In this document: piece after piece, positions 4,506 through 29,089 of the stretch | Position numbering within the stretch: position 1 is the first letter of the stretch | How the letters are laid out: each line of letters starts with the position of its first letter | Made by a program: the position numbers and the translations under genes | From: Candidatus Saccharimonadota bacterium | GTDB lineage: Bacteria > Pseudomonadota > Gammaproteobacteria > Enterobacterales > Enterobacteriaceae | Length of the DNA: 32,000 bases | Reading direction: 5' to 3' | Assembly (NCBI GenBank): GCA_041941795.1 | Contig: CP145872.1 | Coordinates: 300,001 to 332,000, forward strand | Notes under the pieces: model-generated | Told to the model about the DNA's origin: nothing | What the model saw: only the letters and a program-made list of their open reading frames with translations | Database searches by the model: none

Positions 4506-7373
4506 TTAACTCAAAGAGTGAGTTTTAAACATACTATGTTTAATTAGTAGTATTTTCTTTTTGTCTTGTAATATTCTGAGCTGTTCATCCATTTTTAATA
4601 CTACTTCTTTCGGAGCATGAGATAAAAAATTTTTATTAGATAAACGGCTTTCCAAGATCTTGATTCTTTCTCCTAATTTAGTAATGAGGTTATCCAATGT
4701 CTTATATTCCATATTCGGAGTTTTCACATTGGATAATGGAATATGAATTTCTATGTCTGCAATTAATGTGGAGGTTCGAATCATCGGGAGAGAATCATTA
4801 CTGACTGTAGTCATATTTTGGACTTTTGCAAGACTTTGTAATAATTCGAAATTTTCGTGGATAATATTATAATTTACTCTAGTGCTATTACAGGGTCGTA
4901 TCAATAAATCAATTTTATGATTAACGCTAATATTCATTTGAGTACGAATATTACGTATATATCCAATAACTTCTTTCATTAATTTCATATCATTTATGGC
5001 GGACTCATCTTCAGAAGAAGATTGATACCATGGAATTTCCTGGCTCATAATAGATTCATTATTTTCTCTTAATTTATTAAGCCGTAACCAAATATATTCA
5101 GTAATAAAAGGTATAATAGGATGAGCGAGGCGTAATAATGATTCAAAAACTTTTCTTAAAGTGCAACGGGCTATATATTGTTTTGATTTAGAATTACTTT
5201 TGAATGCTATTTTAGTAATTTCTAAATACCAATCACAAAATTTATTCCAAGTAAATTCATAAAGAACGTTAGATGCTAAATCTAACCGATAATTATCAAG
5301 AGCCTTCCGGTATATTTTAACTGTCCGATTAAATTCCGCTAAAATCCACCGATCTGCTAATGTTCTTGTGTTCTGATCAACATCAGAGATGAAAACAGAT
5401 GGTTCCGTATTCTGCAAAACAAACCTACCTGCATTCCATAATTTATTACAAAACTTTCGATATCCTTCTAACCGTTTTAGATCAAAATTAATATTGCGAG
5501 AAGGATAAGATAAGGAAGTTAAAGTAAAACGTAGCGCATCGGCACCATGAGATTTAATTCCGTGTGGAAATTGTTTTTTCGTCCGGAGTTTAATATTATT
5601 AGCAAGTTTGGGTTGCAGCATGTGATCAGTACGTTTCTTCAATAATTCTTCTAATGATATTCCATCTATTATATCTAGAGGATCAATTACATTACCTTTA
5701 GATTTAGACATTTTATTGCCTTGTTCATCCTTAATTAAACCTGTAATATAAACTGTTTTAAATGGAACCTGACCCTTGCCATTTTCATCTTTAATAAAAT
5801 ACATAGAAAGCATGATCATGCGAGCTATCCAAAAAAAAATAATATCGAAACCACTCACTAGAACACTAGTCGGATGATACAGTCGTAATAAATCCGTTTT
5901 TTCCGGCCATCCTAAAGTACCAAAAGTCCATAACCCAGATGAAAACCATGTATCTAAAACATCATCATCTTGTGTTAAGAAGATCTTAGAATGGAGATTA
6001 TTCGCTCTTCGCACTTCTTGTTCATTTCTTCCTACGTAAATTTTACCTGTTTCATCATACCAGGCCGGTATTCGATGTCCCCACCATAACTGACGGGATA
6101 AACACCAATCCTGAATATTGGACATCCAGGAAAAATACATATTTTCATATTTGTCGGGAACAAAATTAATTTTTTTTTGTCTTACAGCCTTTATAGCTGT
6201 TTGAGCCAGATCTCGAGTACGTAGATACCATTGATCAGTTAACATGGGTTCAATTATTGATCGACTTTTTTCTCCAGAAGGCAGAACTAATTCACATAAT
6301 TCTTGTTTTTCCAATAGACCTCTATTTTTCAGATAGAAGATAATTTTTTCTCTAGCGTCTTTGCTGGATAAACCATGAAATTCGTTGGGTATTTGGGTAC
6401 TTAAAGTATTAGTCATGGTACCTTGATAATTAAAGACTTGAGCAGATGTACGAATCGTACCATCTAAATTTAAAATATTTATTAGTGGTAATTTATATTT
6501 TTGTGCTATTTCATAATCTTTAAAGTCATGAGCCGGAGTAAGTTTCATACATCCCGTCCCCTTAGACATATCAATGGTTTTATCAGCGACTATGGGAAGT
6601 CGACGATTCAAAAAAGGTAAAATAACAAATTTTCCTATTAATTTGTGATATCTTTCATCCCGAGGATTAATTGCTATTCCGGTATCACCTAATAAGGTTT
6701 CTGGTCTTGTAGTAGCTATTACCACATACTGTTTTTCTTCCCAAGTTTTCACTCCATCTGCTAATGGATATCGTATATACCATATAAATCCTTGAGATTT
6801 TATGTGTTCTACTTCCAGATCCGAAATTGCTGTTCCTAATATTGGATCCCAGTTAACTAATCTCTTACCCCGATAAATTAAACCATCTTTATATAATTTT
6901 ACAAAACCTTCGTTAACAGCTCTAGTAAAACCTTCATCCATCGTAAAACGGGATCGAGACCAATCAGCGGAACATCCTAGTCGCTGCATCTGATGAAAGA
7001 TTTGTTTATTTAACGCATTTTTCCATGGCAAAACCTGCTCAATTAATTCTCTTCGTTTAAAATCTTTTTTATTTTTCCCAGTGGATAAGAAGAGATTTTG
7101 TTCTATAATAATTTGGGTAGCAATACCGGCATGGTCAGTACCTACTTGCCATAAAGTATTTTTTCCTTGCATTCGATGATAACGAATAAGAGTATCTATA
7201 AGAGAATGTTGAAAAGCATGTCCCATATGCAAATGACCAGTAATATTTGGAGGAGGTAACATAATGCAAAAACTTTCCTGATTATCTCTCTCCTGTTTTT
7301 TAAAACAAGCGAGTTTTTCCCATCTTTCATATATAGGACCTTCTATATCAGAGGGACAATATTTGTTCTTCAT
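4506..7373 (-). CDS. valS: Valine--tRNA ligase
   Basis: 955 aa versus 951 aa in E. coli. The HIGH-type motif (PPNITGHLHMGHA) and KMSKS are both present. There are long collinear blocks (GKNTLWQVGTDHAGIATQ, TRPETLLGDTG, WCLSRQLWWGHRIPAWY). Confidence 0.97.
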   Translation of the reverse strand: MKNKYCPSDIEGPIYERWEKLACFKKQERDNQESFCIMLPPPNITGHLHMGHAFQHSLIDTLIRYHRMQGKNTLWQVGTDHAGIATQIIIEQNLFLSTGKNKKDFKRRELIEQVLPWKNALNKQIFHQMQRLGCSADWSRSRFTMDEGFTRAVNEGFVKLYKDGLIYRGKRLVNWDPILGTAISDLEVEHIKSQGFIWYIRYPLADGVKTWEEKQYVVIATTRPETLLGDTGIAINPRDERYHKLIGKFVILPFLNRRLPIVADKTIDMSKGTGCMKLTPAHDFKDYEIAQKYKLPLINILNLDGTIRTSAQVFNYQGTMTNTLSTQIPNEFHGLSSKDAREKIIFYLKNRGLLEKQELCELVLPSGEKSRSIIEPMLTDQWYLRTRDLAQTAIKAVRQKKINFVPDKYENMYFSWMSNIQDWCLSRQLWWGHRIPAWYDETGKIYVGRNEQEVRRANNLHSKIFLTQDDDVLDTWFSSGLWTFGTLGWPEKTDLLRLYHPTSVLVSGFDIIFFWIARMIMLSMYFIKDENGKGQVPFKTVYITGLIKDEQGNKMSKSKGNVIDPLDIIDGISLEELLKKRTDHMLQPKLANNIKLRTKKQFPHGIKSHGADALRFTLTSLSYPSRNINFDLKRLEGYRKFCNKLWNAGRFVLQNTEPSVFISDVDQNTRTLADRWILAEFNRTVKIYRKALDNYRLDLASNVLYEFTWNKFCDWYLEITKIAFKSNSKSKQYIARCTLRKVFESLLRLAHPIIPFITEYIWLRLNKLRENNESIMSQEIPWYQSSSEDESAINDMKLMKEVIGYIRNIRTQMNISVNHKIDLLIRPCNSTRVNYNIIHENFELLQSLAKVQNMTTVSNDSLPMIRTSTLIADIEIHIPLSNVKTPNMEYKTLDNLITKLGERIKILESRLSNKNFLSHAPKEVVLKMDEQLRILQDKKKILLIKHSMFKTHSLS

Positions 7374-9594: not shown

Positions 9595-11418
9595 TTAATC
9601 ATCATCCAGAAAACTTCGTAAAATATCTGCTCTACTGGGATGACGCAATTTGCGTAATGCTTTGGCCTCTATTTGGCGAATACGTTCTCGTGTAACAGAA
9701 AACTCTTTACCTACTTCTTCTAAAGTATGGTCTGTATTCATATTAATTCCAAAACGCATCCGTAATACTTTAGCTTCTCGAAATTTTAAATCAGTTAAAA
9801 TGTGAGCAGTAGCATCTCGTAAGTTGTCGTACGTAACACTCTCTAAAGGCATTTGAATATTAGTGTCTTCAATAAAATCTCCTAAATGAGAATCATCCTC
9901 ATCCCCAATGGGAGTTTCCATTGAAATAGGTTCTTTTGCAATTTTTAAAACCTTACGAATTTTATCTTGGGAAATTAACATTCGATCTGATAATTCTTCA
10001 GATGTCGGGTCTCGACCTATTTCCTGTAAAATCTTCCGCGACATTCTATTTAATTTATTGATAGTCTCAATCATATGTACTGGAATCCGTATAGTACGCG
10101 CTTGATCGGCTATAGATCTTGTTATAGCTTGTCGAATCCACCATGTAGCATAAGTTGAAAATTTATATCCCCGTCGATACTCAAATTTATCTACCGCTTT
10201 CATTAAACCAATATTGCCTTCCTGAATAAGATCCAAAAATTGGAGGCCTCTATTGGTATATTTCTTAGCTATTGAAATTACTAGACGCAAATTAGCTTCT
10301 ATCATTTCTTTCTTTGCTCTTCGGGCTTTTGCTTCCCCAATAGTCATCCTTCGATTGATCTCTTTTATCTTTTCAATACTTAAACCTGTTTCTTCTTCAA
10401 TTGTTACTAAAATTCTTAGACTTCTTACTATTTCACCCGCTACTTTATGTAAATTTTTTGACCATGGATCTTTTCTTAATAAGGCATTTTTTAACCAATT
10501 TTCATTACTTTCATTACCAGTAAATAAGGAAAGAAAAATTTTCTTAGGCATGTGACATTGATCTACACAAAGTTTCATAATTTTTCGTTCTTGCAAACGT
10601 ACTCGTTCTATCATGGAGCGCAGATTTTCTACTAATTGATTAAATACTTTAGGCATGAACCTAAATTGCCTAAACATTTGTGAAAGATATTTTATTTCTT
10701 GACCAGTATCACGATGATCTCGCCCCTTACTATTAATAATAGCGCAAGTTTTTTCATACTGATTCCTTAAGGAGTTAAATTTTTTACATGCCAATACGGG
10801 GTCAATATGATTTTCATTATCGGAATCTTCTTTTCTAACTTTGTCTTCAGAGGATAAGACCTCCGTAGTAATCCGAATATTTGCATGATATTTCACTATT
10901 TCACCAGCTTTCGGATTGCCAAAACCTATAATGAAATCACTAAGACGAATACCACTCCTGTTAAGATCCTGGTATTGGTCAAGAATGTATGAACTAGATC
11001 CAGGGTAGTCAGCAACTGAAGATTGTACTTGATTGAGACCGTCTTCAATGCGTTTAGCGAGATCTACTTCTCCTTGCCGTGTTAATAATTCTACACTACC
11101 CATTTCTCGCATATACATGCGAACGGGATCGGTAATACGACCTTCCCCTACACCCGATATTATTAAGTCGTTAGGTTGGTTATCTTCTGCATCTTCTTGC
11201 CTGGATGTACCCGAATTAAGTATTGGATCATCTATAACAGGTCTTTCTTCCATAACCGGAATACCCATATCATTAATTATTTTAACTGCCTCTATAACCT
11301 GATCTACATTGATAATTTCCGGCACAAGATAGTCATTGACTTCAGCATATGTTAAATATCCTTGTTCTCTACCTAGATTCACAAGAATCTTTATCTGCGA
11401 CTGCGAATTTTGATCCAT
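9595..11418 (-). CDS. rpoD: RNA polymerase sigma-70 factor RpoD
   Basis: 607 aa versus 613 aa in E. coli. Regions 2-4 are essentially identical ([79 protein letters not shown]...). The acidic non-conserved region is shortened. Confidence 0.97.
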
Positions 11419-11589: not shown

Positions 11590-11985
11590 TTATTTTTTTG
11601 CTAATGCTTGGTTTAAATACCACAACTCATGTTTGTCTTCACTACTCAAACCTTGAGTTCGTTCTAACGCAATAAGTTTTTCTTGACGTTGTTCTAAAAC
11701 TAATTCATATATACTAGTAAGTAAATCCTGAAATGTTTTTTCTAAATGGGCATCATCAATCATGTGGTTCCAATGTGCTAATATTTCAAGAGTTTTTATT
11801 AAATTTGTATCTCTATATTGTTCTAGTAAATATCCCGTATTGATTTTCGGCTCAGCTTGACATTTTACTACTAGTTCTAAAAAAATATTCCATCCCTTCA
11901 GTTTTAACTGCTTTAAAAAAGTTAACTCCGGTACTAATAATGAAAAATGTGGATTTTGCACTAATAAACTGAGTAACACTCTCAT
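11590..11985 (-). CDS. dnaG: DNA primase, C-terminal DnaB-interacting domain, as a separate 131-aa ORF (split or frameshifted dnaG)
   Basis: MRVLLSLLVQNPHF...TQGLSSEDKHELWYLNQALAKK aligns with the last ~148 aa of recalled E. coli DnaG (...MRILIGLLVQNPEL...THGLSNEERLELWTLNQELAKK). Its ATG overlaps the upstream ORF's stop as ATGA. Confidence 0.85.
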   Translation of the reverse strand: MRVLLSLLVQNPHFSLLVPELTFLKQLKLKGWNIFLELVVKCQAEPKINTGYLLEQYRDTNLIKTLEILAHWNHMIDDAHLEKTFQDLLTSIYELVLEQRQEKLIALERTQGLSSEDKHELWYLNQALAKK

Positions 11986-13358
11986 TTTACTTCTTTTTTT
12001 TTGACATATAATTCGCGAGGATAGGGCATAACTGGTCCTCTCTGAAGAGATAATAATTTCAAGATTCTATAATCTAATAGACCTAATTTTTGAAATAATC
12101 TATATCGTATAGAAAGACGGATTATTTGACTAGGAATCTTATCAATTAAGGGTCTTATGAGAGTAAGAAGTTTAGCTTTTCCTTCCGGACTAGAAATATC
12201 TACCTGTTTTAAGAAAGTTTTAAACATAAATTCGGAGAGAGATAGAGCACATAATATTCTTTTTTCAAAAAGAATTTTTCCTTCTTTACGGATTAAACTA
12301 TCCGGATCTTCTCCTTCCGGTAAAAACATAAAACTTATTTGTCTTCCGTCTAACATATATGTTAAGGATTTATTAAGTACTTTCCAAGCAGCTTGCCGAC
12401 CCGCATTATCTCCATCATAACAATAAATAACATTATCAGTATTACGGAATAAAAGTTGAATGTGATCTATTGATGTACTCGTTCCTAAGGAAGAAACCGT
12501 ATAATAAATTCCATTCTGTACTAAAGAAATTACATCCATATAACCTTCTACCACTAACACTTTAAAAGGTCTAGGACATTTTTTCTGTAGTTCATAGAGA
12601 CCATATAGTTGATGGCCTTTATTAAAAATATTTGTAGTAGGCGAATTTAAATACTTAGGATTAGAGTATTTTAGGCTTCGACCTCCAAAACCCATAACTC
12701 TACCTCTTTTATCCCGAATTGGAAACATGATACGATTTCTAAAAAAATCATTTATTTCTTTCTGATAAAATCCTAAAATGCCTATTTCTTTTAATAACTT
12801 ATGATCCTGAGGATAATAATGATCAAAATATTCTTTCAGTGTACTTCCACTACCGGGAGCAAAACCTAAAGCAAATTCTTTAATTATTTTATAATTTATT
12901 CCTCTATTAGCTAAATATTCTCTAGCCTGTAAGGCATTGATAGTTTTATCCCATAAATATTTTTGATATAAATCACATATTATTTTCAGTATGTTAAATA
13001 AATATTCTCTCCGCTGAATTGTAAGAATAGATAAATTACTAGATTCGTATGGAATTTTAAAACCATAAATAGTTGCTAATTCTTCAATGCTTTCAACAAA
13101 ATTTAAATTTTCCCAATTCATTATAAAATCAATGACATTTCCATGCTTGCCACATCCAAAACAATAAAATAATTGTTTTTCTCTACTCACTGTGAAAGAA
13201 GGATGTTGATCATTGTGAAAAGGACAACACGAACGATAATTTTTTCCTATTTTTTTTAAAGGTAAATTAGAGTGGATTAGTTCTACTATATCTATATGAG
13301 TTATTAAATTTTTAATGAATGTATATGGAATATATCTACCCATTGACTGACTCTTCAT
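11982..13358 (-). CDS. dnaG: DNA primase, N-terminal part (zinc-binding and TOPRIM/RNA polymerase domains), terminating prematurely after the A9 run
   Basis: Collinear blocks with E. coli DnaG include CCPFHN...PSFTV, CFGCG.HGN.IDF, FR.R.MFPIRDKRGRV.GFGGR, KYLNSP.T.IF.KG.QLYGLYE, VVEGYMDV and CYDGD.AGR.AAW. It ends ...LYVKKKEVK*, about 130 aa short of full length. The ATG at 13343 (MGRYIPYTF versus E. coli MAGRIPRVF) is an alternative start. Confidence 0.9.
   Translation of the reverse strand: MKSQSMGRYIPYTFIKNLITHIDIVELIHSNLPLKKIGKNYRSCCPFHNDQHPSFTVSREKQLFYCFGCGKHGNVIDFIMNWENLNFVESIEELATIYGFKIPYESSNLSILTIQRREYLFNILKIICDLYQKYLWDKTINALQAREYLANRGINYKIIKEFALGFAPGSGSTLKEYFDHYYPQDHKLLKEIGILGFYQKEINDFFRNRIMFPIRDKRGRVMGFGGRSLKYSNPKYLNSPTTNIFNKGHQLYGLYELQKKCPRPFKVLVVEGYMDVISLVQNGIYYTVSSLGTSTSIDHIQLLFRNTDNVIYCYDGDNAGRQAAWKVLNKSLTYMLDGRQISFMFLPEGEDPDSLIRKEGKILFEKRILCALSLSEFMFKTFLKQVDISSPEGKAKLLTLIRPLIDKIPSQIIRLSIRYRLFQKLGLLDYRILKLLSLQRGPVMPYPRELYVKKKEVK
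11994..12002 (-). other. A9 homopolymer (slippery run A AAA AAA AAG) at the dnaG frame break
   Basis: The plus strand shows T9 at 11994..12002. On the coding strand this reads GTC AAA AAA AAA GAA GTA AAA TGA. Confidence 0.9.
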
Positions 13359-13433: not shown

Positions 13434-13646
13434 TTATTTATGTATACGTCGTGATTGTTGCCGAGCTAATTTCTTAGCCAGTCGTTTAATGGCAGATGCT
13501 TTTTCACGTTTCCGTTGAGTAGTAGGTTTTTCATAAAACTCTCTCCGTCGGACTTCTGCCAAAATTCCGGCTTTCTCGCAGGAACGTTTGAAACGTCTAA
13601 GCGATACATCGAATGGTTCATTATCGCGAACTATTATAATGGGCAT
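13434..13646 (-). CDS. rpsU: 30S ribosomal protein S21
   Basis: [52 protein letters not shown]... is near-identical to E. coli S21. I prefer the ATG at 13646 (AGGGAG 5 nt upstream) over the GTG at 13652 used by the track. Confidence 0.95.
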
Positions 13647-13679
13647 AATCACTCCCTAAATCATAGAACTGTAATCGTT

Positions 13680-13742: not shown

Positions 13743-14747
13743 GTGAGGGTCCTAGGAATTGAAACATCCTGTGATGAAACAGGAGTAGCCATTTATGATG
13801 AAAAAGACGGTTTATTAATTAATAAAGTTTATAGCCAAATGTTACTGCATGCCACTTATGGCGGTGTAGTTCCTGAATTAGCGGCTAGGAATCATATTAA
13901 AAAAATTGTTCCATTAATTAAGTCTCTCTTAAAAGAGACCACATTAAGTATACGAGACATTAATGGTATTGCTTACACTGTAGGACCTGGTTTATCCGGA
14001 TCCTTATTAGTAGGATCCAGTTTTGGACGTTCATTAGCATTTGCTTTAGATATTCCCGCTTTACCCATAAATCATCTGGAAGGACATATATTTACGCCCT
14101 TTATTGACAATAATCATCCTATTTTTCCTTTTGTATCATTACTAATTTCCGGAAGCCATACATTATTAGTTAATGTTCTAAAATTAGGAAGCTATCAATT
14201 ATTAGGACAAACAATTGATGATGCAGTAGGAGAAGCCTTTGATAAAATCGCTCACTTATTAGGATTAGAATATCCGGGAGGATCTAAATTATCTCATTTA
14301 GCCCATCAGGGTAGAAAGGATCGTTTTACTCTTCCGCGACCTTTGATTAATCGTCCTGGTTTAGATTTTAGTTTTTCAGGATTAAAAACTTATACTGCTA
14401 ATTTAGTTCAAAAAGAAAACAATGATATTCAAACACAAGCCGATATAGCTCGTGCTTTTGAAGATGCGGTTATAGATTCATTGTTAATTAAAAGTCAAAG
14501 AGCACTAGAGTTCACTAAAATAAATCAATTAGTAATTGTAGGGGGTGTGAGTGCCAATAGTCATTTGAGATCCAGTTTTAATAAGTTATTTGATTCTAAA
14601 AATATTCTTTATGCTCATCCGGAATTATGTACCGATAATGGCGCTATGATAGCTTATGCAGGATTTCTCAGATTAAAAAATGGTGAACAATATCAAGAAT
14701 TAACAATTAATGTTAATCCACGGTGGTCAATAAATAACTTATTTTAA
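13743..14747 (+). CDS. tsaD: tRNA N6-threonylcarbamoyladenosine (t6A) synthesis protein TsaD (YgjD/Gcp)
   Basis: MRVLGIETSCDETGVAIYD..., GGVVPELA, GPGL.G.LLVG, GEAFDK.A.LLGL.YPGG and CTDNGAMIAYAG are collinear with E. coli TsaD. The start codon is GTG. It is divergent from rpsU as in E. coli. Confidence 0.95.
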   Translation: MRVLGIETSCDETGVAIYDEKDGLLINKVYSQMLLHATYGGVVPELAARNHIKKIVPLIKSLLKETTLSIRDINGIAYTVGPGLSGSLLVGSSFGRSLAFALDIPALPINHLEGHIFTPFIDNNHPIFPFVSLLISGSHTLLVNVLKLGSYQLLGQTIDDAVGEAFDKIAHLLGLEYPGGSKLSHLAHQGRKDRFTLPRPLINRPGLDFSFSGLKTYTANLVQKENNDIQTQADIARAFEDAVIDSLLIKSQRALEFTKINQLVIVGGVSANSHLRSSFNKLFDSKNILYAHPELCTDNGAMIAYAGFLRLKNGEQYQELTINVNPRWSINNLF

Positions 14748-14772: not shown

Positions 14773-16035
14773 TTATATATCTTTTTTCCAAAATTTTATA
14801 GCTTCACACCGTCGTCGATCTAATTCTTTATGAATCTCAGATCCTTCATATCCATCTTGAATCACTTGTTTTACAGATACCTGACTCGCTAAAAGAAAGA
14901 TCTTGCGGAGATAATTGATCTGTGGATAGTCTTCTAAAATCAAAGGACATTGCCGATCGTAATTTACCGCTTGACTTACCGCCGCAATCTGACTAAGACG
15001 TTGAGGTTTACGCCATGCATCAATTTTATTAAATAATGTAATTATAGAATTAGATTCTACTCCCTCTATTTGATGTACTAAAAAATTCCATTTATTGGCT
15101 AGTAAAGCAAAATTTCGTAAACATTTTGGTACTCGTAAACGCTGACAGAATTGTTCTACTAATTGCAGTTTTTCTAGTGTGGATATGTGTTGCAACTGTA
15201 AGTCAGTACTTCTCTTATTAGAAATAAGATAATTTTTTGCGCTCACCAGTTGGCCTACATCATGACATAAAGAAGCAAAACGTACTTCCAAGTGGGTACT
15301 AATCCTGACTGCCAGGGACAATGACAACAGAGGATGACCAGTAATATTATTATTTAACAAATGTTTTTCCGGATTAGCATTGATATTAATTTGGTACAAA
15401 GTATCAATTTCAGGAAAAATAGAGGATAAAGCATGACATTCTCGAAGTATCTGAAAATATAAAATCGGATTACGAGAACGCAAAGAAATTTCTGTCTCTT
15501 TCCAAACTCTTTCAGCTGATAAGTAATTTAAATCCCCACTTGCGGACATAGAACGCATTAGAGTTAGTGTTTCCGGCGCTATCTGAAAATTAAGATAGTC
15601 ATAACAGGCTGCAAAACGTGCTACTCGTAACACTCGTAATGGATCTTCACTAAAAGCATTTGAAATATGTCGAAGTCGGCGATGAAAAATATCATTACTT
15701 CCATTAAATGGATCATAATATTTGCCCTGTGCATCACATGCAATAGCATTAATAGTTAGATCTCTTCTGTAAAGATCTTGTTCTAATGTAATATCTGGCG
15801 ATGTATAACAGGTAAATCCTCTATATCCCCTTCCAGATTTTTTTTCTGTACGAGCCAACGCATATTCTTCTCCGCTAATGGGATGTAAAAAAACCGGAAA
15901 ATCTTTTCCTACTGGTTTAAATCCTTGTTTTATCAATTCTTCGGGTGTCGATCCAATAATTATCCAATCTTTATCTTTGAGAGGAAGATTTAGTAATCTA
16001 TCGCGTACAGCTCCTCCTACCAGGAAAATTTTCAT
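14773..16035 (-). CDS. cca: CCA-adding tRNA nucleotidyltransferase
   Basis: MKIFLVGGAVRDRLLNLPLKDKDWIIIG, VGKDFPVFLHP, EYALARTE.KSG.GY.GF, RRDLTINA, EDPLRVLRVARFAA and IDAWRKPQR are collinear with E. coli Cca. I prefer the ATG at 16035 (matching E. coli MKIYLVGG) over the upstream GTG at 16059. Confidence 0.92.
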   Translation of the reverse strand: MKIFLVGGAVRDRLLNLPLKDKDWIIIGSTPEELIKQGFKPVGKDFPVFLHPISGEEYALARTEKKSGRGYRGFTCYTSPDITLEQDLYRRDLTINAIACDAQGKYYDPFNGSNDIFHRRLRHISNAFSEDPLRVLRVARFAACYDYLNFQIAPETLTLMRSMSASGDLNYLSAERVWKETEISLRSRNPILYFQILRECHALSSIFPEIDTLYQININANPEKHLLNNNITGHPLLSLSLAVRISTHLEVRFASLCHDVGQLVSAKNYLISNKRSTDLQLQHISTLEKLQLVEQFCQRLRVPKCLRNFALLANKWNFLVHQIEGVESNSIITLFNKIDAWRKPQRLSQIAAVSQAVNYDRQCPLILEDYPQINYLRKIFLLASQVSVKQVIQDGYEGSEIHKELDRRRCEAIKFWKKDI

Positions 16036-16277
16036 TAATACACGTCCTTTTTTTTTCACGCATATTATATATAATATGTATTATACATCAAAAGTAATGT
16101 TGTAGTATGGTAGTTATTTCGAAGTTGTAAGAAATCACAGAACTAGGATAAAAAAATATCCTTGTGATTATTTAAAGTACTTAAATTGACTGTAGTATGA
16201 AAAATACGTATCGCTGCAAGCTAAAAATATGAAAAAATTAAAAAACATAATATTTCTCTGAATGTAAAAGGATAACT

Positions 16278-25798: not shown

Positions 25799-26863
25799 AT
25801 GAAGAAGGTTGTTTATCCTTACCCACAGCAGAGATTAATCTCATTTAATACTTTTGGTATTGATGTTCATGCTGTCAAAGTCATGGTGATACAAAATATT
25901 TCTGAATTACTTCAAGCATGGAAATCCTCTCAACAAGATAATTTACCAATTTTGATCTTAGGGTCTGGAAGTAATGTTTTATTTCTAGATGATTTCATTG
26001 GCACTGTCATTATTAATCGTTTAAAAGGAATAAAAATACGAGAAACAATGGAATATTGGCATTTACATGTTAATTCAGGTGAGAATTGGCATACGTTAGT
26101 GGAATATACTATTAAAAATAAAATTTTTGGTCTAGAAAATTTAGCTTTCATCCCGGGATGTGTAGGTGCAGCTGTTATTCAAAATATCGGTGCTTATGGT
26201 ATGGAGTTTAATACCTTTTGTGAATATGTAGAAATTCTTGATTTATTGAATCAAAATATCTTCTGTATTTCAGCCGATAAATGTGAGTTTCAGTATCGAA
26301 ATAGTATATTTCTTCATAATTATAAAAATAATTATATTATTACTGCTGTTGGTTTATTAATTAAAAAAAATTGGAAGCCTCATTTAATTCATCCCAGCTT
26401 ATTATTTCTCGATTCTTCTCTAATTACTCCAAAAAAAATTTTTGATACTATTTGTTCTCTTCGCTCCAGAAAATTACCCAATCCTCAAATTCTTGGAAAT
26501 GCTGGAAGTTTTTTTAAAAACCCCATCATTGAAGCTAAACAAGTTGTGCGCATCTTATGTAATTTTCCAAACCTTCCCAATATTGTTCAGAGTAATGGAT
26601 TAGTAAAAATTTCTGCAGGTTGGCTTATTGAGCAATGTAATCTCAAAGGGTATCGATATGGAGGAGCTGTAGTACATAATCAACATGCGCTCATTTTAAT
26701 AAATGAAAAACATGCCACTGGGTGGGATATTGCCCGTTTAGCAAATATAGTTCGACAATCCGTGGGTGAAAAATTTAATATTTGGCTTGAACCAGAAGTG
26801 CATTTCATAGGTGCACATGGAAAACTAACGTCTAGTGAAGTTATAGGTGATAATTTAACTTAA
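25799..26863 (+). CDS. murB: UDP-N-acetylenolpyruvoylglucosamine reductase
   Basis: NTFGID, ILG.GSNVLFL.D..GTVIINR.KGI, GENWH.LV.YT, GLENLA.IPGCVG...IQNIGAYG, LP.P...GNAGSFFKNP and VGEKFN.WLEPEV.FIGA are collinear with E. coli MurB. Confidence 0.94.
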   Translation: MKKVVYPYPQQRLISFNTFGIDVHAVKVMVIQNISELLQAWKSSQQDNLPILILGSGSNVLFLDDFIGTVIINRLKGIKIRETMEYWHLHVNSGENWHTLVEYTIKNKIFGLENLAFIPGCVGAAVIQNIGAYGMEFNTFCEYVEILDLLNQNIFCISADKCEFQYRNSIFLHNYKNNYIITAVGLLIKKNWKPHLIHPSLLFLDSSLITPKKIFDTICSLRSRKLPNPQILGNAGSFFKNPIIEAKQVVRILCNFPNLPNIVQSNGLVKISAGWLIEQCNLKGYRYGGAVVHNQHALILINEKHATGWDIARLANIVRQSVGEKFNIWLEPEVHFIGAHGKLTSSEVIGDNLT

Positions 26864-27037
26864 CAAAAATATTGTTTCATCCTCCCAATAAGAGCAAAAA
26901 TTTTTTTTTTGAAAAAATTTTCGTGTGAAGCCAGATCCGGCTACAATTAAAAAAATGAGAAAATATGATAAAGACTTTCCAATAAGTTCTTCTATATTAG
27001 AAATAATTTTTATGTTAAAATGACAGAATATTGACAT
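26855..27037 (-). pseudogene. Possible highly degraded relic of pantothenate kinase coaA (otherwise a spurious ORF)
   Basis: This 60-aa ORF sits on the strand and in the slot where E. coli has coaA (between murB-birA and thrU, divergent from thrU). It starts MSI as CoaA does (MSIKEQ). It has ..NIEEL.. (compare LSLEEV), and an unusually GC-rich patch encoding IVAGSGFTRK (compare the CoaA P-loop region SIAGSVAVGKSTTAR). An A10 run lies inside it. The resemblance is weak and judged by eye only. Confidence 0.25.
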
Positions 27038-28654: not shown

Positions 28655-29089
28655 ATGGCTAAAAAAAAAGTACAAGCTTCTGTAAAATTACAAGTTGCTG
28701 CGGGTATGGCTAATCCTAGTCCTCCAGTCGGTCCTGCTTTGGGCCAAAGAGGAGTAAATATTATGGAATTCTGTAAAAATTTTAATGCTAAAACAGAATC
28801 TTTTGAAAAGGGATTACCACTCCCAGTAATAATAACCGTTTATTCAGATAAATCTTTTACATTTATAATTAAAAGTCCTCCCGCTGTTGCATTACTAAAA
28901 AAAGCGGCTGGTATTAAGGCGGGATCGAGTAAACCTAATAAGGAAAAAGTAGGTTCTATAACATATAACCAATTACGGGAAATAGCAGCAACGAAAGTTT
29001 CCGATTTGACCGGTGCAAATCTTGCAGCTATGACTCGATGTATTCAAGGAACAGCTCGTTCCATGGGATTAACGATAGTAGAGGATTAA
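28655..29089 (+). CDS. rplK: 50S ribosomal protein L11
   Basis: [46 protein letters not shown]... is near-identical to E. coli L11. It has one extra Lys, encoded within an A9 run (28661..28669). Confidence 0.97.

Follow-up and report, generated by a model that had tools for sequence, protein, structure and literature searches.

The dnaG locus and its broken reading frame

The stretch of DNA analysed here, called the window throughout, comprises 32,000 nucleotides of contig CP145872.1 and belongs to 'Candidatus Dasytiphilus stammeri', a symbiont of Listrus beetles. The subject of the analysis is dnaG, the gene of the essential replication primase DnaG, which lies in an rpsU-dnaG-rpoD operon on the minus strand (13358..11590) and is divided into two open reading frames (ORFs). 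A reading made earlier from the sequence alone had noted that the gene is broken at a run of nine A residues, with the two ORFs overlapping in ATGA, and this was confirmed when the sequence was read again. ORF1 (11982..13358, minus strand) was in the zero frame and encoded 458 amino acids, which comprised the zinc ribbon, the primase catalytic core, the Toprim domain and most of the inter-domain linker. ORF2 (11590..11985, minus strand) was in the -1 frame and encoded 131 amino acids (MRVLLSLLVQNP...), corresponding to the DnaB/SSB-binding C-terminal domain of DnaG. The Pfam domains agreed with the division into a zinc-binding and TOPRIM part and a DnaB-binding part that had been proposed earlier. 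Zn_ribbon_DnaG, DNAG_N, Toprim and PF10410 were matched in ORF1, and PF08278 (DnaG_DnaB_bind) was matched in ORF2 over profile positions 1-124 of 124 with an E value of 3e-30. The order of the DnaG domains, namely the zinc ribbon, the catalytic core with Toprim and the C-terminal DnaB-binding domain, was collinear across the two ORFs.

The coding strand at the break read ...TTA TAT GTC AAA AAA AAA GAA GTA AAA TGA GAG TG.... The A9 run (11994..12002, minus strand; T9 on the plus strand) is in the mRNA sense, encodes Lys453-455, carries a one-base deficit and is the proposed site of slippage. ORF1 ended at the TGA at 11984..11982 and its last three residues, EVK, formed an out-of-frame tail. ORF2 started at the ATG at 11985..11983, and the overlap of the two ORFs in the window was ATGA. 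The run and this ATG were separated by the eight bases GAAGTAAA (11986..11993, minus strand), which would join the two ORFs in a fused product; preceded by the last A of the run, they form the -1 frame codons AGA AGT AAA (Arg-Ser-Lys).

The addition of one A to the run or, equivalently, a -1 shift at the end of the run gave a stop-free protein of 589 amino acids (...LYVKKKRSKMRVLLSLLVQNP), as had been anticipated from the sequence. The repaired product scored 429 bits against the TIGR01391 model of dnaG (cutoff 283.6) and matched in order the PDB structures 1D0Q (zinc-binding domain), 1DD9 (query 114-434, RNA-polymerase domain) and 1T3W (query 454-589, C-terminal domain). The stretch spanning the junction of the fused product (...YVKKKRSKMRVLL) aligned without gaps with the intact DnaG of other Dasytiphilus clades (...FKHTTMRILISLLVQNP), and it was collinear with the E. 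coli C-terminal domain structure 1T3W (LKRTTMRILIGLLVQNP), where KKRSKMRVLL corresponded to LKRTTMRILI. The bridge RSK aligned to RTT in E. coli and to HTT in intact Dasytiphilus. We observed that K447, T449, T450, M451 and R452 were invariant in 20 intact Erwiniaceae DnaG proteins, and that the last lysine of the run aligned to the invariant K447, four residues upstream of the ORF2 methionine. The ATG of ORF2 is the ancestral internal Met451 and not a newly evolved start.

At the other end of the gene (window 13344..13358), the clade has a five-residue N-terminal extension, MKSQS, relative to the E. coli MAGRIP. The sixth DnaG residue in the related isolate Lsp06 is Ile and not Met, and therefore the upstream ATG at 13358 must be the start, at least in Lsp06.

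Conservation of the frameshift and selection on both halves

The window lineage falls in the Listrus-beetle clade, within the Erwiniaceae. The nearest genomes were those of the 'Ca. Dasytiphilus stammeri' isolates Lsp06, Lsp00, Lsp04 and Lsp01 from Listrus sp. beetles. The Listrus symbionts live in bacteriomes and supplement tyrosine, and their genomes measure 440-518 kb at a GC content of 28-33% (PMC11191362). The GC content of the window was 29-35%, in keeping with the AT-rich, reduced genome of an obligate insect endosymbiont.

Two points speak for an artefact of sequencing or assembly, an alternative that the sequence-only reading had also listed: A9 homopolymers are error-prone, and the assembly of one Listrus symbiont genome used Nanopore reads corrected with Illumina data (PMC11191362). 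The Logan assemblies of four separate runs (SRR27829358, SRR27829360, SRR27829361 and SRR27829362) matched the window at 100% identity along up to 5155 bp, with the A9 run included. For Lsp06, Lsp00 and Lsp01, the GenBank assemblies and the independent Logan assemblies agreed on the frameshift. An error of this kind is effectively excluded, because identical DNA was obtained from four independent Illumina runs and the same frameshift was present in five other, diverged lineages.

In the protein searches, the ORF1 query returned an identical protein of 458 amino acids and three truncated relatives (91%, 90% and 72% identity), all without the C-terminal domain, and the remaining matches were all DnaG proteins of ~581 amino acids. 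The query with ORF2 alone, made against a collection of 5.8 billion proteins, returned just two close relatives, and no repaired full-length DnaG from the Listrus clade was found in a collection of 15 billion sequences. The ORF1 and ORF2 proteins of the Listrus-clade strains in the searched collection came only from Logan assemblies and none from NCBI, though the genomes are in GenBank, which suggests that the GenBank annotation gives dnaG no product or marks it as a pseudogene. This matters for annotation, as neither ORF has an NCBI protein record in that collection while the genome paper scores dnaG as present in all strains in its table; the text of that paper does not mention frameshifts, pseudogenes or the primase (PMC11191362).

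The comparison of the same site in sister lineages, which had been proposed earlier, revealed the same frame relationship at the run in all six lineages, i.e. the window lineage, Lsp06, Lsp00, Lsp04, Lsp01 and SRR27811466. The identity of ORF1 among them ranged from 72 to 100%, with a synonymous divergence (dS) of up to ~0.5. The site read GTC + A9 + GAAGTAAAATGAGA in the window strain and GTC + A9 + GAAGTAAGATGCGA in Lsp06, Lsp04 and SRR27811466, each with a run of A9. It read GTA + A9 + GAAGTAAGATGCGA in Lsp00 and ATA + A9 + GAAGTAAAATGCGA in Lsp01, where the run is effectively A10. Three other Dasytiphilus clades carried an intact dnaG of 579-582 amino acids without an A run at the homologous place, which read TTC (or TTA) AAA CAT ACA ACT (or ACG) ATG CGT, encoding F/L-K-H-T-T-M-R. 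The collinearity with intact homologues placed the one-base deficit in the run.

The out-of-frame tail of ORF1 was 3, 11 or 7 residues long depending on the lineage, and neither the tail nor the stop codon was conserved. The ATGA overlap, to which the sequence-only reading had attached meaning, turned out to be specific to the window's lineage. The TGA reads TGC in the five other lineages, where ORF1 stops 16-25 nt downstream of the ORF2 ATG (overlaps of 25 nt and 16 nt), and the ATGA arose by a CGA to AGA change that is synonymous in the -1 (ORF2) frame. Among lineages, AAA/AAG was the sole substitution between the run and the ATG; it is silent in the -1 frame but changes the residue (K/R) in the zero frame.

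Selection on the two halves was analysed using pairwise Nei-Gojobori estimates of the ratio of non-synonymous to synonymous divergence (dN/dS). For ORF2, dN/dS was 0.14-0.29 in most pairs and 0.57 in one close pair. Against Lsp01, the most distant lineage (dS ~0.5), the values were 0.22-0.29 for ORF2 and 0.33-0.36 for ORF1. Between the window and Lsp01, the 315.8 non-synonymous sites of ORF2 carried 35.2 changes and its 77.2 synonymous sites carried 28.8 (Fisher p = 1.8e-7). ORF2 had 131 codons in each of the lineages, its 396 nt were free of indels, and the other two frames of the same DNA contained 10 and 23 stops. In a neutral simulation, placing the 64 observed differences at random left ORF2 open in only 0.5% of trials. 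Judged by these substitution patterns, both halves are maintained by purifying selection, each in its own frame, at dS ~0.5, and the -1 frame must be the one in which the C-terminal domain is translated. Incipient pseudogenisation, another option of the earlier reading, is therefore effectively excluded. On the combined evidence of the assemblies, the sister lineages and the downstream frame, the split dnaG is neither an assembly error nor a fresh pseudogene, and we regard an artefact or the recent inactivation of a decaying gene as extremely improbable.

The uninterrupted AAA AAA AAA was also considered as a sign of selection. This was rejected, as AAA makes up 83% of the lysine codons and such a stretch is expected from codon usage alone. 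The search for an internal promoter before ORF2 found no coding-strand consensus match nearby, and the total number of matches was below the shuffle expectation.

Proposed recovery of a full-length primase

The explanation that we favour, and consider probable from the comparison of lineages, is that a real and old frameshift lies at the run and that full-length primase is recovered by slippage, mainly transcriptional. The sequence-only reading had likened the case to the slippage rescue of Buchnera and Blochmannia. The frameshift in this likeness proved to be a genuine genomic one, and the rescue is favoured by the comparative evidence; the slippage itself, the responsible polymerase or ribosome and the yield are what we infer. 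Through AT-biased substitutions, a Lys-Lys-Lys A run would have arisen in the linker that precedes the helicase-binding domain. The ancestor of the Listrus clade would then have lost one A, and all sampled descendants would have inherited the frameshifted allele. Standard decoding would give a truncated primase (ORF1), and the full-length, helicase-tethered DnaG would come from a fraction of expression events, namely those with slippage on the A9/A10 run. This would probably happen mainly through the addition of one A (or the dropping of two) by RNA polymerase during transcription, and the ribosome may contribute by tandem -1 slippage on A_AAA_AAA. The junction, ...YVKKK-RSK-MRVLL..., would be identical by either route.

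An AlphaFold model of the fused C-terminal 207 residues was used to locate the site in the structure. The linker, including KKK, had a predicted local distance difference test score (pLDDT) below 50 (residues 51-73), and the site was located at the end of this low-confidence linker, with helix 1 of the domain beginning three residues later. In-frame products with one lysine more or fewer (+4, +1 or -2 A) should function, because the site lies in a disordered linker.

Several observations weigh against this explanation. The preservation of the run is by itself not evidence of selection. T449 and T450 were replaced by Ser and Lys in all Listrus-clade lineages, which hints at an altered constraint around the junction; K447, T450, M451, R452 and I455 form the SSB-tail pocket of E. 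coli DnaG (PMC6163395), and the contact between primase and SSB may have changed in the Listrus clade. The heptamer A_AAA_AAA is a proven -1 ribosomal frameshift motif in some insertion sequence elements (PMC4066793), and translational slippage may therefore account for part of the rescue. Furthermore, the PF08278 model starts exactly at the ORF2 methionine and, in the AlphaFold model, helix 1 begins one residue before it; an ORF2 produced on its own would therefore make up almost the whole domain.

The positions at which the PF08278 model and helix 1 begin favour a primase that is truly split, in which ORF1 and ORF2 would be two polypeptides working without covalent linkage, with ORF2 produced by reinitiation after the termination of ORF1. 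Also in its favour, purifying selection acts on both intact ORFs in every lineage, and ORF1 stops within 0-25 nt of the ORF2 ATG. We nevertheless consider it unlikely. Across the lineages, no conserved stop/start overlap was found for ORF2, the ATGA being confined to the window's lineage with stops 16-25 nt past the ATG elsewhere. A Shine-Dalgarno sequence before ORF2 was not found either: the pairing with the anti-Shine-Dalgarno sequence was -1.3 kcal/mol, weaker than at 84% of the window gene starts (medians of -5.4 kcal/mol for window gene starts and -2.2 for internal ATGs). The ATG is an ancestral internal codon, and a separate ORF2 would lose the invariant K447, a residue of the SSB-tail pocket, and the conserved Arg. 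DnaG's C-terminal domain recruits primase to DnaB (PMC6163395), and by analogy with E. coli a catalytic fragment without it should be poorly recruited and should prime poorly at the fork.

Slippage at the run could also be mainly ribosomal, i.e. programmed -1 frameshifting in which two Lys-tRNAs slip back on A_AAA_AAA with little contribution of RNA polymerase. All six lineages share the heptamer, which permits re-pairing without mismatch in the -1 frame and has the precedent in insertion sequence elements given above. The sequence-only reading had invoked a dnaX-type heptamer, A AAA AAA AAG; this was mis-phased (+1 frame), and the in-phase heptamer in the ORF1 frame is A_AAA_AAA followed by GAA and not A_AAA_AAG, which makes the A-site codon AAA and not the especially shifty AAG. 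No dnaX-like stimulators accompanied it. A downstream stimulatory structure was not found in the 83 nt from the run onward, where the minimum free energy was -10.3 kcal/mol against -8.4 +/- 2.4 for shuffles (z = -0.79), and the five-lineage consensus fold (-6.6 kcal/mol) contained no compensatory or covarying pair. The aligned 35 nt upstream held no conserved GGAG or AGGA-like element that could act as a Shine-Dalgarno-like stimulator. A run of 9-10 A suffices for slippage by bacterial RNA polymerase, which slips on runs of nine A/T (PMC5009743). In Buchnera and Blochmannia, 12-50% of the transcripts of poly(A)-frameshifted genes are frame-corrected as summarised in PMC5009743, and ~30% full-length transcripts are quoted for such genes in PMC3017870. 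Because the run is long enough and the stimulators of programmed frameshifting were not found, transcriptional slippage is favoured, with a possible ribosomal contribution, and a mainly ribosomal route appears rather improbable.

The absence of reversion in any of the six lineages requires a separate consideration. The insertion of one base into the A9 run should be mutationally easy and frequent, and other runs change length, yet the frameshift has persisted. The frameshifted state could be nearly neutral, with primase needed in very small amounts, or it could be favoured, for example to lower or diversify primase expression. An extension of the latter idea is that the frameshift is a selected recoding device which, in the manner of tau/gamma, fixes how much helicase-tethered full-length primase is made relative to a zinc/RNA-polymerase fragment that lacks the tether, and perhaps to a helicase/SSB-binding domain in free form, in the extreme as two polypeptides; we give this version little weight. 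Less likely still is a heterogeneity of the DNA itself, whereby minority genome copies in polyploid symbionts, generated by replication slippage and carrying an in-frame run (A10 in the window lineage), would supply the intact primase. Unconstrained homopolymers do vary between lineages, as seen in the run at the 5' end of cca and in intergenic T runs. However, every consensus assembly of every lineage had the frameshifted length, and no repaired protein from the clade occurred among the 15 billion sequences; both observations speak weakly against it, since assemblies hide minor alleles.

Related systems and other homopolymer runs

Slippage rescue of frameshifted genes is a known mechanism class in insect endosymbionts. 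The closest parallels to the Dasytiphilus case are the poly(A) frameshifts of Buchnera and Blochmannia (Tamas et al. 2008; Wernegreen et al. 2010; as presented in PMC5009743, PMC3017870 and PMC4389277). As described in these sources, the shared features are an obligate insect endosymbiont with an AT-rich, reduced genome, a single-base indel in an mRNA-sense run of at least nine A in an otherwise intact gene, and a frameshift that is kept in diverged lineages while purifying selection acts on the part downstream of it. Conserved 'ancient' frameshifts were the subject of Wernegreen et al. 2010, as cited in PMC4389277. The Dasytiphilus case differs in the symbiont lineage (Erwiniaceae) and the host (Listrus beetles). 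It also differs in the kind of evidence, which is a comparison of sequences here and cDNA heterogeneity in Buchnera and Blochmannia, with 12-50% of transcripts corrected (PMC5009743).

The novelty implied by the sequence-only reading did not hold for the gene itself. A homopolymer-tract frameshift in an otherwise intact dnaG was already reported in Blochmannia vafer, with transcriptional slippage proposed as the rescue (Williams & Wernegreen 2010, PMC3017870). The same essential gene is therefore frameshifted in a poly(A)/poly(T) tract in both cases; the frameshift was present in one species of the three compared in Blochmannia, and in at least six lineages in the Listrus clade. What is new is the occurrence in a beetle symbiont of the Erwiniaceae and the clade-wide conservation in six lineages, which had previously gone unnoticed.

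Other genes with A-rich runs offer a wider comparison. The E. coli dnaX gene has an in-phase A_AAA_AAG, an upstream Shine-Dalgarno-like element and a downstream stem-loop, and its frameshift product is the shorter protein of the tau/gamma pair. It shares with the Listrus dnaG a function in replication, an A-rich slippery heptamer and products of two lengths with a common N-terminus. The Listrus gene differs in having A_AAA_AAA, in the absence of detected stimulators and in that the shift yields the ancestral protein at full length. Thermus dnaX, Shigella mxiE and Citrobacter tssM likewise have runs of ~9 A, mixed transcripts and two length variants per gene (PMC5009743, PMC4256274); these organisms are free-living or pathogenic and the slippage in them was shown experimentally, whereas the case for the Listrus primase is comparative.

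The results present a clean, clade-wide case of a replication gene that is essential and clearly kept although standard decoding cannot read it through. The dependence of core genes on slippage for their expression, described in symbionts of aphids and ants, would thereby extend to a symbiont of beetles from another bacterial family. The six natural A9/A10 alleles further provide a testable system for asking whether such frameshifts are no more than tolerated or serve to reduce or diversify the expression of primase.

Other homopolymers in the 32-kb window were also inspected, and no other gene broken at an A/T run was found in it. In-frame mRNA-sense A9 runs were present in two further essential genes, namely valS (6170..6178, minus strand) and codons 3-5 of rplK (28661..28669, plus strand). 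Should RNA polymerase in this organism slip on A9, some of the valS and rplK transcripts would be expected to carry a frameshift; the two runs offer natural controls for measurements of tract length. The cca ORF (16059..14773, minus strand) had an A9 run at its 5' end (16048..16056), after the first possible start, GTG. The NCBIfam CCA-enzyme match started only at residue 9, and this run is probably in the 5' leader or start-codon region, upstream of the conserved protein. Its length was A9 in the window, A6 in Lsp06 and A5 in Lsp00 and Lsp04, and it was interrupted in Lsp01, which shows how volatile the length of homopolymers is in these genomes in the absence of constraint. The longest homopolymer of the window was an intergenic T10 (plus strand, 26901..26910), located between an ORF ending at 26863 and a tRNA-Thr/Tyr/Gly/Thr cluster.

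The neighbours of dnaG were those of the operon named above. The gene was flanked upstream by rpsU, encoding ribosomal protein S21 (13652..13434, minus strand; TIGR00030, 79 bits), and downstream by rpoD, encoding sigma-70 (11418..9595, minus strand; NF004208, 806 bits), and tsaD (13743..14747) was divergent from the operon. The rpoD product had 607 amino acids in the window and 607-612, with region 1.1, in other Dasytiphilus clades. In Lsp01, the most reduced strain (Listrus sp. 01, 440 kb), rpoD (L004/L008, ~5026..6675) was called at 549 amino acids with no region 1.1 match among the Pfam matches listed, and this may represent an N-terminal truncation of sigma-70.

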